Source: Escherichia coli | Lineage (GTDB): Bacteria; Pseudomonadota; Gammaproteobacteria; Enterobacterales; Enterobacteriaceae | Assembly: GCF_016903815.1 (NCBI RefSeq) | Contig: NZ_CP069973.1 | Strand: one strand, 5' to 3' | Length of the DNA stretch: 64,000 nucleotides | In this document: piece after piece, positions 17,361 through 24,029 of the stretch | How positions within the stretch are numbered: the first letter of the stretch is position 1 | How the letters are laid out: each line of letters opens with the position of its first letter | Translations under genes and position numbers: made by a program | The notes under the pieces: model-generated | What the model was told of the DNA's origin: nothing | Databases searched by the model: none | The model's input: only the letters and a program-made list of their open reading frames with translations

Positions 17361-17390
17361 TACCGGGCAGGTATCCTGCCCTTTTTTGGT
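17361..17390 (+). terminator. Rho-independent terminator after the sulfatase gene
   Basis: gggcagg-tatc-ctgccc followed by tttttt. Confidence 0.6.
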
Positions 17391-17396
17391 TAAAAA

Positions 17397-18494
17397 ATGG
17401 CTGAACGAAGAAAAACTCATCACTCATGGAAAACCCGCCGCGATATGGTTATTCGCGGCATGACGATTAGTTTGCCATGGTTTGCTTTTATCAATGTCAG
17501 TTTTGCATTGATAATTTTGCTGCGCCGTGTTCTGTTTAATGACCTTACTCCACCCTGGTTAAATGAAAAAAGCCTTATACATTCTATTGATATATCTGCA
17601 ACGGGTATTCTGCTGATTTGCAGTGGTTTACTACTCATCCCTCGGCAAAAAACATTACCTATCCAGGTGCTATTAGTTGCCCTGAGCCTGCTATGGTCAT
17701 GGTGTAGTTATCACTTTATTGCGTACTGGACGCTGCAGTTTGCTTATCCACTATGTGTATTATTAATGCTTAGTGGCGTTGTCGCACTTTATTTCCATAC
17801 CCCATCATTGCTCGCATTTGTCATTCCCTTATGGTTCACCACTCCAATAGCGAGTCTTATGCTTAATCAACAGATCAATATTCATTTTGCTGTTGTATGG
17901 TGTATTTTTTCACTGGCGCTATATGGTGGGCGACTCATTTTGTTACGTTGGTTTGAAGAAGCATGGATACAAAACAGTTATAACAACCAGTTAATTAATC
18001 GCCTTGATGCATTAGCACATCGTGATCCTTTAACTGGGATAGCAAACCGACGTGCAATGAACAGTATCTTACACGACGCGATGGATAACGGCGGGTCATT
18101 TGCTCTTATTATGCTGGATGTCGATTTTTTTAAACGTTACAACGACACTTACGGGCATCCTGCTGGGGATCGTTGTCTAATACAAGTTGCCGACGCTCTA
18201 CAGCGTTCAACTCGCCAGTCGGAGGATGTTGTTGTCCGTTATGGTGGCGAAGAGTTTGCCATCATACTTTTTAATGCAACATTGCCGGAAGCAGAGACGG
18301 TAGCAGCCAGAGTGAAGCAAGAACTTAAACTGGCAGCTATCCCACATCAGGCATCTGCTGTTAATGCATTTGTTACGGTTAGTCAGGGGATTACCTGTTC
18401 TGCTCCCGCAAAAACGGCTGAACAAATTATTTCAGATGCCGACGCTGCGTTATACCGGGCGAAAGAAAGTGGGCGAAATCGATGGGCTTTATAA
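17397..18494 (+). CDS. Membrane-anchored diguanylate cyclase (multi-TM N-terminal domain + GGDEF)
   Basis: 365-aa ORF; hydrophobic N-terminal ~200 aa; RYGGEEF active-site motif; start codon uncertain (no clear RBS; internal Met candidates at 17445 and 17460); AT-rich. Confidence 0.8.
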   Translation: MAERRKTHHSWKTRRDMVIRGMTISLPWFAFINVSFALIILLRRVLFNDLTPPWLNEKSLIHSIDISATGILLICSGLLLIPRQKTLPIQVLLVALSLLWSWCSYHFIAYWTLQFAYPLCVLLMLSGVVALYFHTPSLLAFVIPLWFTTPIASLMLNQQINIHFAVVWCIFSLALYGGRLILLRWFEEAWIQNSYNNQLINRLDALAHRDPLTGIANRRAMNSILHDAMDNGGSFALIMLDVDFFKRYNDTYGHPAGDRCLIQVADALQRSTRQSEDVVVRYGGEEFAIILFNATLPEAETVAARVKQELKLAAIPHQASAVNAFVTVSQGITCSAPAKTAEQIISDADAALYRAKESGRNRWAL

Positions 18495-19424: not shown

Positions 19425-19823
19425 TCAATATCCTAACGCTGGTCTTTTGCCTGTATTAACTGATTTAGCTGGTTTGCTACATATTAATGCCTTCAGATTT
19501 TCCCTTTCCTTGTCTGTGATACTGTCGCAAACCCTACTAGCCCATTCTACTTCACTCTTCTCCAGGCATTCAATTTTCTTATTGCTCATTGTTCTAATGT
19601 TTGGTGTTGCATCTCCATTTAATAACATCCATGTTTCATTTTTCTTCATAAAACATCTTCCATTATGTTCAAAGATATTAGGTGTGAATATATTATCAGA
19701 ATCCCATGTTACGACTTGCTCGAGGGCTATATTATCTTGATAGTCCATGCCAGAATTATAATAATCACAAGATATAATTATCATGGAAATAATTATCACT
19801 AATATCTTCCCAAGCATTTCCAT
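19425..19823 (-). CDS. Putative Rhs-toxin immunity lipoprotein
   Basis: 132 aa, immediately downstream of and abutting the rhs stop; lipobox IIS-C with Asp at +2; AT-rich; assignment is by position. Confidence 0.55.
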   Translation of the reverse strand: MEMLGKILVIIISMIIISCDYYNSGMDYQDNIALEQVVTWDSDNIFTPNIFEHNGRCFMKKNETWMLLNGDATPNIRTMSNKKIECLEKSEVEWASRVCDSITDKERENLKALICSKPAKSVNTGKRPALGY

Positions 19824-22800
19824 TTACTTTACCTCTTGAAATTTAAATGGGAATCCAGTGAAAGGACCTTTAGGCATAATATATCTTTGATATCCATAAA
19901 ACTCACCGAGCACTTGTAGGCTTATAGGCGCATTTGTATTCATAGAGGGGTTGTTAAACCCGCACGCCTCAAAAATCATGTTCGTTCGGCTAAAACAATT
20001 ATTTGCAACAGGAAGAGGCCCGAGGTTAATAGTTTTTAGTTTTTTATTAAGGTCTATTGCCTTATTCATCATACATTGTTCTTCTTCATCTGTTGTATCT
20101 ATTATCCAAATCCAGGTATCTCTGCGGGGTTGCATCTTTTTAAAATAATCAGAGACAGAGGCGCCCATCTCATCCCCAGTTCCCGAACTCATTAATCCAT
20201 ATCGATTTGCCGCCGCAGCATGCCCAAAAGGATTATCAGGAACGGGGCCATTACCTATTATCATAGTACTAAGGCCTAATGGATCAACGTGTTGCACTGG
20301 ATTCAGCGGATATTGGTACAGATTCCATCCCCCATCCCCCCCTATCGGGTCCTGGATGATATACCGCCCCTGCAACGGATCGTAGTACCGGTGACGGTTA
20401 TAATACAGCCCCGACTCCTCATCGTGTTGCTGCCCTGGCAGACGGTACGGCTGGTGCAGGTGATGCGGGTTTTCCTCATTCAGCAGGTTTCCCCACTCAT
20501 CATACTCCCCGCTCCACGCCGTATTGCCGTCTTCGCTGATGAGCGCCAGCGGCAGGCCCCGGTGGTCGCAGTGGTAAAGATGAACTTTTCGCGCCGGTGT
20601 GTATTCCGGCTCCACCTGTCTGGCCAGTTGCTCTACCGTCAGCCCGCACTGCGCAAGCCACGCCCGGCTTTCACTGCTCACGCGGTCTGCCCGGATTTCT
20701 TCCTCCAGTCTGTCCAGCAGCCGTACCAGTTCAGCCGGGAACACCACGCCGTGCCCGTCCTCGCTCCCTTCCTGCTGCAGCTTCTCCGCCAGGCTGTGGC
20801 GCTGCGTTTTCTCCCGCTCGCCGTTGTCTGTTTCGATGCGGATGAGTGGTGTGAAGCTTCCCGGCTCGTATACCGTCTGGATCCGGCTCTGTTGTGTCTG
20901 TATCGTCGTCAGCCTGTCACCGTCCCAGCCGTACCACGTTACCTCCGGTTTACGCGACAGCGACATCCACCCCGTCAGGTCACGTACCCGCCGCCACACC
21001 CGTTTACCCGTCCGGCGGCCCAGCGGGTCGTAGAGGTAGCGGCTCTCCACCTGCGGCTCGCCATGCTGTATCCGCGTGTAGAACTCTAGGCGGTGCTGGC
21101 TGTCGTAGTGGTAGTGGTGGGTCCGCTCGTCGTCCGTCCGTATCACACCCGCCGGGATGCGGTCCGTCTTCTCCGTCAGCCTGCCGTATTCATCGTGGCG
21201 GTAGACATAGTGCGCATCCTCCGCGATGCGGTTATCCAGCCACACTGTGAGTGTACTGTCCGGGTGCAGCTCCGGGTCCGGCAGCCGGTTGCCCGCCGGG
21301 TCCGTGGCATACGGGATGCGGATGTCCAGGTCCGGTGCGAGGGTGCGCACACTCGCCAGCCTGCCCGTGGCGCTGTAGCCGTATTCCCGCGTCTGTCGCG
21401 GGCCGCTGATGCGCACCAGGTCGCCGTTGTCATTCCACCCGTAGTCACGGTCATACACCAGGCTGTTCAGGTGCTGGCTCTGTAACTGGCCTGCGGGGGT
21501 GTATGTGCTGGTCAGTTCGTATGCGGCATTACTGCCTGCCATGCTGCCGAAGCTGCGCACCGTCTCCCGGTGCAGCCTGTCCCGCGTATACTCGACCCGC
21601 GGCGTCCCGCCCAGCTTCATGCCCGCCAGATAGCCGCTACCATAGGTCAGCCACTCCACCGGCGGCAGGCTGTCCGGCGTGACGCGGTTTGCCAGCCCCT
21701 GCTCGTTGTATGCGTGTTTCGTCTCATGCTGCCACAGCAGTTCCCCCGTCTCCGGGTTCTCCACCGTCTGGCGTTCGCCGGTCAGGCGGCCTTTATCGTC
21801 ATAGCCATAGTGGACGGCAACACGGTGGCCTTCACTGGTATGGCTGAGGGTGGTTAACCACCCGTGCTCATCATACTGCCACTGCTCTGCCGGGTCGCCG
21901 TTCACCGTCCGGTGCGTGATGCGGTCTGCTTCATCGTAGTACCACTGCGTGACCTGCCCCTCATCCTCGCTGCGGATGAGCTGCCCTGTGGCGCTGTACC
22001 GGTAACGCTGTGTCCTGCCATCAAAGCCGCGCTGCTCCGTCAGGCGGTCCAGCACATCGTAGGTAAATTCACTCCGGCTGCCGTTCTCGTTGGTCAGCGT
22101 GGTGACACGTCCTGCCGCGTCATACTCCATACTGCGCGTCAGCCCGCCCTGCGTGGTGCTGACCGCTTTTCCCCACGCATCGTACTGTGTCTCGCTCCGG
22201 TTGCCGTCCGGGGTGATAACGGCAGTCAGGTCGCCTGCGGCGTTGTACTCATACTGCGTTTCACGGCCCTGTGCGTCTTTCACCGAGGTTAACCGGCCAC
22301 GGTTGTCATAGCGGCGGTAACGGCTGATACCTTCCTCGCGGTGGACCGCCGTCATCTGACCAAAGCGGTCGTATTCATAGCGGGTCTGGTAGCCCGAGCA
22401 GTCGGTGAACGCCAGCAACTGCCCGTAGCGGCTCCAGGTCATCTGCCGGGTGCTGCCCGTCGCATCCGTTGTCGTCGCCGGTAACTCACTGTACGCGTCA
22501 TCGTAGCGGTAGCGTACTGTCTCCCCGCTGCGCGATGTCTCCGTTACCAGCCTGCCCGGTTCATCATATGCCCGGCGGCTCTCCAGCCCGTCCGGGGACA
22601 CCACTGCCGTCACCTGGTTCCCGTCGTTATAGTAAAATTTCGTCTCCCGCCCGTCCGGTGTGGTGATGTCCGTGATATCGCCTGACACCACATTCAGACC
22701 GTACTCTGTCCGCCGTCCCGCCGCGTCCGTCTGCGCCGTAAGCCTTCCTGCCGCGTCATACCCACTGTGCGTGGCGCTGCCGTCCGCCAGTTCTTTTTTC

Positions 22801-24029
22801 ACCACCCGCCTCAGCCCGGCCCCGCCTTCTGTATGCAGCACCTCACGCCGGTTCAGGCTGTCCGTGACGGTGATGCGGTCCTGCTCATACTGGTAGCGGT
22901 AACTCAGGCCTGCCGGGTTCAGCTGCTCCACCACCCGCCCCGCATCGTCGTAGCGGTAGCGCATCTCCGGCCTTCCCGCGTAACGGTGCGCCACCATCCG
23001 GCCCGGGTGCTGCGCGTCATACGTGAAAGCGCGCACCTGCGTATTGCTGCGGTCATATACCGCCAGCAGTTCACCGGCTTCCGTATACGTGTACCGCACC
23101 AGTGGCGCACCGGGCAGGCTCTCCGGGTATGCCGGGTCGTGCATCAGCCACACCGCCGAAAGACGGATGCCCCTGTCGGGGCCGTATTCGGTACCGGGCA
23201 GTGTGTCGGGGAACGCTGAGGCTGAAAGAGGGCGGGGGGTGTCAGGGGAAAATAAGGAAGCGGTGTGCTGTTTACGGGCCTCTTCCGCCCGCTGCGCCTG
23301 CGTGGTCAGCACCAGACGGAACTCCCGCCCGGCACCGTCCGTCACGCCGGTGATTTCCCCGGCCAGGTCACCGGCGGCCTCACGCCGGTACGTCAGCCCG
23401 GTAAGCACCCGGTACGGCGGCAGCGGCGCTGGCAGTACGTCCTCAGTGCCCGGCACCCGCTCTGACCACCCCAGTATCCACCACGGTCCCTGTGCGCTGT
23501 TGGTCGCCAGGTAAAGATGCGGGCTTAACCGGATATCCGGCGGCAGCGACGCCCACAGCCGTGCCAGCGTGTGGCCGTCCGGCTGCGCTGCCTTACCACC
23601 GCGAACCAGCCACATTGACTCGCTGCGGCTGTACACCGCCCCCCCCGGCAGCAGCGGCTCAAAGTGAATGCTCCGTCCGCCGTTGTCGTTGAGTACCAGT
23701 GCATCATCGCGTATCTGTAAGCGGATATCAGAAGGCGCTTTCCAGCCGGGGCCAAAAATTCCCACCGGCGCAGGCGTCTTCGTCCGGTAGCTGCTGTAGG
23801 TGCGGGAGAGAATGAACGGCAGCGGGCCGGGCAGCGCAAGGTCCGTCTCGCCGGGCAGCACCTTCGCCCCCAGCAGCGGATTTACCGGGTTGCCCGAAGT
23901 CATCCTGCCCGGACACACCGAGCACGCCACGCCGGTGGGCGCGCCAATTCTTACACCTGCCGAACCCTGGACAATGGGACCGCCATACTGAGTCATATCT
24001 CCCTGACGCGCCGCTGGTTTTCCGCTCAT
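19824..24029 (-). CDS. rhsE: Rhs-family polymorphic toxin with N-terminal PAAR-like domain, YD-repeat core and variable C-terminal toxin domain
   Basis: 1401 aa; N-terminus [11 protein letters not shown]; many YD repeats; core ends at ...[27 protein letters not shown], followed by a 148-aa AT-rich tail (19827..20270); gene symbol by synteny only. Confidence 0.9.

Follow-up and report, generated by a model that had tools for sequence, protein, structure and literature searches.

The 64,000-nucleotide stretch of Escherichia coli DNA analysed here (NCBI RefSeq assembly GCF_016903815.1, contig NZ_CP069973.1), referred to below as the window, carries a gene for a membrane-bound diguanylate cyclase, which lies between pptA and the remnant of an ISAs1 transposase. 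Cyclic di-GMP (c-di-GMP) is a biofilm signal, and the motif for feedback inhibition has the textbook form R-x-x-D. In the canonical inhibitory site (I-site) this RxxD motif is found five residues upstream of the GGDEF motif, with the Arg at position -9 and the Asp at position -6. In the cyclase of the window three residues separate the Arg from the Asp (R-x3-D, not R-x2-D). We propose, with moderate confidence, that this pattern represents a conserved length variant of the primary I-site, which is predicted to probably still bind c-di-GMP.

Domain architecture and I-site motif

As judged from its sequence, the protein belongs to the MASE5-GGDEF family of membrane diguanylate cyclases and is intact; c-di-GMP synthesis is predicted for it. 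A Pfam profile search returned MASE5 (PF17178, residues 25-206) with a score of 149.8 bits (cutoff 25.2) and GGDEF (PF00990) with 165.1 bits (cutoff 23.8), and the profile TIGR00254 scored 157.6 (cutoff 37.4). The scores over cutoff place the enzyme among the GGDEF diguanylate cyclases and, together with the polytopic topology, in the MASE5 family. It belongs to a curated Pfam architecture and is otherwise an ordinary accessory enzyme of E. coli, presumably the MASE5-GGDEF cyclase that has been named DgcY (Povolotsky & Hengge 2016). None of the NCBIfam equivalogs (SiaD, DgcZ, PleD, DgcN, DgcQ, AdrA and others) scored over its cutoff, the best values being obtained for SiaD (154, cutoff 290), PRK09894 (145.5, cutoff 256) and PleD (136.8, cutoff 474). 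The closest solved relatives of the GGDEF domain are ImcA (8wcn), WspR and SiaD.

The catalytic residues D241, N249, D258, R281, E285/E286, K356 and R360 correspond to D327, N335, D344, R366, E370/E371, K442 and R446 of PleD from Caulobacter crescentus (1W25, 2V0N), which likewise possesses a GGEEF motif and all catalytic residues. The active site (A-site) and the metal- and GTP-binding residues are all present and are invariant in an alignment of 38 diverse family members (27-93% identity). This agrees with the first-pass annotation of this DNA, in which the catalytic motif RYGGEEF had been described as intact. A terminator scan flagged a 12-pair hairpin at 18240-18266, inside the coding sequence and over the RYGGEEF codons; with only 4 G-C pairs it is almost certainly a chance match. 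The start of the gene is either the ATG at 17397, giving an open reading frame (ORF) of 365 amino acids (aa), or, as in RefSeq, the ATG at 17445 (349 aa). The former sits a few bases 3' of a T-run, and no obvious Shine-Dalgarno sequence was seen there.

The I-site region reads TRQSEDVVVRYGGEEF and comprises residues 272-287, at positions 18210-18257 (T-R-Q-S-E-D-V-V-V-R-Y-G-G-E-E-F; codons act cgc cag tcg gag gat gtt gtt gtc cgt tat ggt ggc gaa gag ttt). Counted back from the first Gly of the motif (G283), R273 occupies position -10, Q274 (CAG) position -9 and D277 position -6. The protein lacks the canonical pair of R(-9) and D(-6): the Asp is kept, and a Gln takes the place of the Arg. The translation thus bears out what had been read earlier within 18145-18290, namely a Gln at -9 with an Arg one residue further upstream. 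All features discussed in this report are compiled in Table 1.

Table 1. Position of the cyclase gene, its domains and key residues, and the neighbouring features in the window.
Feature	Position	Strand	Remarks
MASE5-GGDEF diguanylate cyclase gene	17397..18494	+	ORF of 365 aa from ATG 17397
Same gene, RefSeq start	ATG 17445 (M17)	+	349 aa, WP_020233927.1
MASE5 membrane sensor domain, aa 25-206	17469..18014	+	Pfam PF17178; six predicted transmembrane helices
GGDEF catalytic domain, aa 207-362	18015..18482	+	Pfam PF00990, whole profile matched (1-161 of 161)
D230, at the secondary I-site Arg position (WspR R198)	18084..18086	+	HMMER alignment to WspR
Primary I-site loop R273-Q274-S275-E276-D277 (R-x3-D, not R-x2-D)	18213..18227	+	Sequence
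A-site G283-G-E-E-F287	18243..18257	+	Sequence; invariant across MASE5-GGDEF family
R305, corresponding to PleD R390 (third primary-site Arg)	18309..18311	+	+22 from first Gly as in PleD; family-invariant
SdsA1-type alkyl/aryl sulfatase, 658 aa	15374-17350	+	Lactamase_B, Alkyl_sulf_dimr and Alkyl_sulf_C; immediately upstream of cyclase
Terminator-like hairpin GGGCAGG-tat-CCTGCCC, then T-run	17365..17391	+	Between sulfatase stop and cyclase start; 7 pairs, 6 G-C; consensus match only
ISAs1/H-repeat transposase remnant, 183 aa	18568-19119	-	DDE_Tnp_1_assoc only; abuts cyclase; frameshifted in strain 7/2 annotation
Rhs core protein, 1401 aa, then 132-aa ORF without Pfam match	19425-24029	-	

Register and conservation of the Arg-Asp pair

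The register of the motif was described by a frame, the number of residues that lead from the conserved GD dipeptide (its Asp, D258; D344 in PleD) to the first Gly of GGDEF. Most canonical RxxD domains (80 of 100) are of the PleD type, with a spacing of 24 and the Arg at +15 from the GD Asp, and 19 of the 100 are of the WspR type, with a spacing of 25 and the Arg at +16. All 30 R-x3-D domains combine the spacing of 25 with an Arg at +15. Seen from the side of helix alpha2, R273 hence takes the position of PleD R359, and D277 stands at -6, the position of every I-site Asp (D362 in PleD). The third Arg of the primary site is present as well, with R305 at the place of PleD R390, which provides an additional stair-motif contact to (c-di-GMP)2 (PMC3838380). 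The two residues between Arg and Asp in PleD, whose frame is 24 residues long, become three in the cyclase with its 25-residue frame, i.e. by comparison of the sequences the loop between R273 and D277 is one residue longer. The two enzymes also differ in their input, which is provided by REC domains in PleD and by the MASE5 membrane domain here.

Alignment by BLASTP and MAFFT against PleD, whose sequence was checked against the PDB, pairs R273 with R359 and places a one-residue insertion within the R-D loop (STRQSED vs NVR-AID). A profile hidden Markov model built from the 80 canonical domains with a 24-residue frame gives the same result, with R273 under the canonical Arg and an insertion of one residue in the loop, and so does a profile built from all 99 canonical domains (24- and 25-residue frames). 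By these alignments, R273 would correspond to the canonical Arg of the majority type with its 24-residue frame. In close relatives with a 25-residue frame, V(-11) and P(-8) are in register, so that V-x-R-P-x-D stands against V-R-x-P-x-D, with V-R-R-P-x-D intermediates. Compared to these relatives the motif looks like a shift of the Arg by substitution, and compared to the 24-residue majority it looks like a one-residue insertion; both descriptions hold.

Among solved structures, GcbC (Pseudomonas fluorescens, 5EUH, VRRPAD) and ImcA (P. aeruginosa, 8WCN, RRPLD) are closest in the motif region and have the 25-residue frame. They share the Arg at -10 with the MASE5 family but also keep an Arg at -9, and they have membrane domains other than MASE5. 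In overall sequence and fold, ImcA matches the cyclase best. GcbC, an RR intermediate, has been crystallised with c-di-GMP bound (5EUH); none of the GcbC papers searched states which Arg of RRPAD contacts the ligand.

The 120 best relatives come from Escherichia, Enterobacter, Lelliottia, Leclercia, Salmonella, Hafnia and Pantoea, and 119 of them bear the GGEEF motif. All 119 share R(-10) and D(-6) (R-x-x-x-D-x5-GGEEF), in variants that include RTPAD, RTPDD, RTPED, RSPDD, RQPED and RQSED, while at position -9 a single one has Arg and the other 118 have T, S, Q, H or M. In the 38-member alignment the invariant columns of the GGDEF domain include, apart from the catalytic residues, R273, D277, R281 and R305; those columns that can be mapped to PleD are, beyond R273 and D277, either catalytic residues or R305. 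Positions 274-276 vary freely, with T, Q, S, R, N, M, K, A and others at 274. Neighbour-joining groups the MASE5-type domains in a clade of 30 leaves (28 R-x3-D and 2 RRxxD) in which R(-10) is never lost. Throughout this clade, which reaches down to about 27% identity, R(-10) and D(-6) are invariant while position -9 varies.

A broader set of GGDEF domains, taken from the 150 best 50%-identity cluster representatives, was classed by ungapped register and inspected for an Arg at the R305 column. This Arg is present in 67% of the 104 RxxD domains, in 8 of the 9 RRxxD domains, in 29 of the 30 R-x3-D domains (the exception being a truncated protein), in 39% of the 31 xxxD domains and in 25% of the 116 domains that have no I-site motif. 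Within a sample of 99 domains with a 25-residue frame and no Arg at -9, both R(-10) and D(-6) occur in 30, only R in 6, only D in 8 and neither in 55, corresponding to an odds ratio of 34. In the same sample an Arg is found at the R305 column in 29 of the 30 domains with both residues vs 19 of the other 69. In sequence comparison, R273, D277 and R305 thus appear to behave as a unit, like the canonical triad, and since they are invariant and co-occur, the site seems to have been maintained rather than lost. Because R(-10) and D(-6) are kept in all 119 relatives and in the 30-member clade, the R-x3-D pattern can be regarded as neither a lesion nor a product of chance; by all sequences compared, it is conserved family-wide.

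Secondary structure was read from an AlphaFold2 model of the whole cyclase (mean predicted local distance difference test score 89). In the membrane region the model predicts helices at 14-41, 58-80, 86-109, 116-131, 135-157 and 162-207, the sixth of which runs on as a 46-residue stalk into the GGDEF domain. Here, alpha2 (254-271) is followed by the loop T272-D277, beta2 (278-281) and beta3 (286-292), and alpha3 (296-313) carries R305. An AlphaFold2 model of a relative with the canonical sequence VQRPGD has the same frame, with alpha2 ending at -12, the loop spanning -11 to -6 and beta2 -5 to -2. As the frames are identical in both models, -10 and -9 are both predicted to be solvent-side loop positions by the same helix end.

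Interpretation of the R-x3-D site

The patch formed by R273, D277 and R305 is most likely still a primary I-site that binds c-di-GMP, since there is no other obvious reason why precisely these residues should be invariant. It would represent a c-di-GMP-binding allosteric site kept by selection and, because of this, the enzyme would probably still be sensitive to its product. Affinity or mechanism is likely to be altered, and in the absence of a secondary Arg the inhibition may be weaker or different in kind. A search of the literature returned no description of a conserved R-x3-D variant of the I-site, the hits being a typographical error and an unrelated RxxxR mutant.

Several observations weigh against this interpretation. 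The i/i+3 spacing of Arg and Asp, the defining feature of the I-site, is not what is found here. A motif-directed search of the PDB yielded no pure R-x3-D domain, nor did the literature searched contain an experiment on such a domain or a ligand-bound structure of one. Moreover, a single clade comprises 28 of the 30 R-x3-D domains, so the conservation and co-occurrence counts are not phylogenetically independent events. The alignments do not all point in the same direction either: the profile of the 19 canonical domains with a 25-residue frame aligns without gaps and puts Q274 under the canonical Arg. The same holds for a HMMER alignment to WspR (P. aeruginosa; 3BRE), which shares the 25-residue GD-to-GG frame and RYGGEEF with the cyclase (GGDEF domains 37-38% identical), and in which R242 at -9 is placed over Q274. 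The I-site had been said to look shifted in the first-pass annotation, which named alignment against PleD- and WspR-type domains as the check. Once carried out, this check supports the shift in the case of WspR and contradicts it in the case of PleD and the majority type, with whose canonical Arg R273 is in register. The verdict hence depends on the reference chosen, because the frame of PleD comprises 24 residues and that of WspR 25.

A further objection concerns the secondary site. In WspR the secondary Arg is R198, which comes from the neighbouring GGDEF domain (PMC2270323); the cyclase has D230 at this position (PleD R313 / WspR R198), in a column that varies over the family (A, S, L, E, Q, D, R and others) and lacks a conserved Arg. 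The second arginines of PleD are contributed by the REC domain or by R313, and none of them is conserved in the cyclase. In addition, the predicted helix alpha1 has 13 residues vs 18 in the canonical relative, and the enterobacterial family members have a shortened alpha1 end. As the secondary-site Arg by which two GGDEF domains are cross-linked in WspR and PleD is absent, a second Arg would have to come from elsewhere, and it may be supplied by another part of the cyclase.

These findings could alternatively mean that the I-site is functionally lost and that the cyclase escapes allosteric product inhibition, so that control would be left to the MASE5 sensor and the level of expression alone. 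We regard such an escape as less likely, but as a serious alternative. Apart from the ungapped WspR alignment and the unconserved Asp at the secondary position, it is favored by mutants of WspR, since R242A and R198A each purify nucleotide-free and highly active (PMC2270323). In line with this, Giardina et al. describe RxxD as necessary but not sufficient and a second Arg as needed for canonical inhibition (PMC3838380). Escape or weakened inhibition is thus conceivable given the non-canonical R-D spacing, the missing secondary-site Arg and the reported need for a second Arg. Cyclases without a working I-site are moreover commonplace, with DgcF/YneF (PMC4287979) and YfiN (PMC10127611) as examples in or near E. 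coli. Membrane cyclases such as YfiN/TpbB of P. aeruginosa, E. coli YfiN/DgcN and DgcF/YneF have been reported or predicted to lack canonical I-site inhibition. Like the cyclase studied here, YfiN has no secondary-site Arg (PMC3838380); it keeps RxxD and lacks an equivalent of R390, whereas the cyclase shows the reverse, a non-canonical R-D spacing with the R390 equivalent kept. However, a dead site would let R273, D277 and R305 drift, yet they are invariant down to about 27% identity while their neighbours vary, they co-occur as a unit, and R273 stays in the PleD register in gapped and profile alignments.

Another explanation is that the patch is kept for a role other than feedback, such as docking of a partner, binding of another ligand or of a different oligomeric form of c-di-GMP, or cross-linking to the stalk or to MASE5 loops. 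This seems unlikely to us. It would account for a patch that is conserved without a conserved secondary Arg, and there are precedents: mutations at or near the I-site of GcbC lower the interaction with LapD (10.1101/212183; PMC12421958), and for DgcY of Halomonas, which reportedly lacks RxxD, c-di-GMP acts via a partner regulator (PMC12421958). On the other hand, the residues are exactly the triad that contacts c-di-GMP in PleD, and no neighbouring gene is conserved, the genomic contexts differing in E. coli, Salmonella, Enterobacter, Hafnia and Pantoea. The Halomonas enzyme is a six-transmembrane GGDEF protein that reportedly binds c-di-GMP with a dissociation constant (KD) of 53 uM (PMC12421958). 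We dropped it as an experimental proxy, because only the first 85 codons of an ortholog were recovered and its transmembrane region is, by eye, unlike MASE5. A primer-derived 21-mer matched this ortholog at the edge of a Vreelandella stevensii contig (1-255), where the gene is cut by the contig end, and a protein search returned only a fragment.

We consider it similarly improbable that R-x3-D and R305, with no secondary-site Arg, represent a second type of GGDEF allosteric site, distinct and conserved, that binds c-di-GMP in another geometry or stoichiometry. In that case the ligand could, for instance, be bound as a monomer, or as a dimer that cross-links the GGDEF domain to the stalk or to MASE5 loops, and not to a second GGDEF domain. 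Finally, we reject as highly improbable that the Gln arose recently by a degenerative point mutation (CGG to CAG) while this accessory gene was decaying: CAG is one transition away from CGG, and truncated and frameshifted alleles occur in some strains (243 aa, 328 aa; NZ_CP159693.1), but 118 of 119 relatives over several genera lack an Arg at -9 and the allele of the window is full length, has all catalytic residues and is carried by 436 genomes at >=99% identity.

Distribution, neighbourhood and implications

The cyclase gene is found in 443 of 5426 complete E. coli genomes (about 8%), and its copy in E. coli strain 7/2 is 100% identical to that of the window and annotated as "GGDEF domain-containing protein" (WP_020233927.1). 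One cluster of 138 E. coli sequences (243 aa) ends before the GGEEF motif, and in NZ_CP159693.1 the match is one base shorter than the query and the annotation says no more than sensor-domain protein. Because such shortened or differently annotated versions exist in the population, the gene may be decaying in some E. coli lineages.

Like the cyclase, DgcX of E. coli O104:H4 is an accessory enzyme absent from K-12, with a membrane sensor and GGEEF. It has a MASE4 domain and catalytic E359/E360 and is described as possessing a canonical RxxD, and its gene is prophage-adjacent at attB (PMC4287979, PMC10459773). Identity of the two enzymes was rejected, as the cyclase has MASE5, 365 aa, GGEEF at 283-287 and a location in the nhoA-yddH-pptA region, and the GGEEF of DgcX lies at about 357-361.

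In strain 7/2, pptA and the alkyl/aryl-sulfatase gene flank the locus on one side; on the other are an ISAs1 transposase gene with a frameshift and the genes for an Rhs core protein and VgrG. In K-12 MG1655, ydcC (ISAs1 family) leads directly to pptA, without sulfatase and cyclase. As K-12 has the intact ydcC at this junction, the locus represents a presence/absence polymorphism bounded by an ISAs1 element. A relative with 64% identity occupies the same narZYWV-nhoA-yddH site, without the sulfatase, and for this reason the locus would appear to be old and variably retained, not a recent import. Elsewhere in the family the surroundings change: the copy of Salmonella enterica subsp. indica, at another locus, adjoins a divergently oriented alkyl sulfatase, Enterobacter copies are found in the tynA-feaB region, and the contexts in Hafnia and Pantoea differ again.

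The pairing of sulfatase and cyclase recurs in one of six other contexts and is absent in five. Given this and the terminator-like hairpin between the two genes, an operon of both as a conserved unit is unsupported. The pairing might point to a MASE5 signal related to detergents or alkyl sulfates, or could be a coincidence. On the other side of the cyclase, the 132-aa ORF that follows the Rhs gene is a likely candidate for the cognate immunity protein. In strain 7/2 a VgrG gene lies just beyond the Rhs gene, and K-12 has only the rhsE pseudogene there. The narY gene is split by IS200C in strain 7/2 and is intact in the window (514 aa, 9241-10785), which therefore stems from another strain.

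In conclusion, the R-x3-D motif is best seen as a small twist on a well-known enzyme, and not as a broken site or a new system. Its relevance lies in how diguanylate cyclases are classified. The presence or absence of RxxD routinely sorts these enzymes into feedback-inhibited ones and others, and annotators would call the present cyclase I-site-negative; a recent paper classed a different six-transmembrane cyclase in this way, on the grounds of its motif (PMC12421958). If R-x3-D works as an I-site, motif-based censuses under-count the feedback-regulated cyclases, and the definition of the I-site should refer to both helix alpha2 and strand beta2. Were it a second architecture of the allosteric site, the clade would have a feedback set-point different from that of RxxD cyclases. 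If, in turn, the site is dead, the E. coli lineages that carry the gene (about 8% of complete genomes) possess an additional cyclase without a product brake, which would be of relevance to biofilm output.

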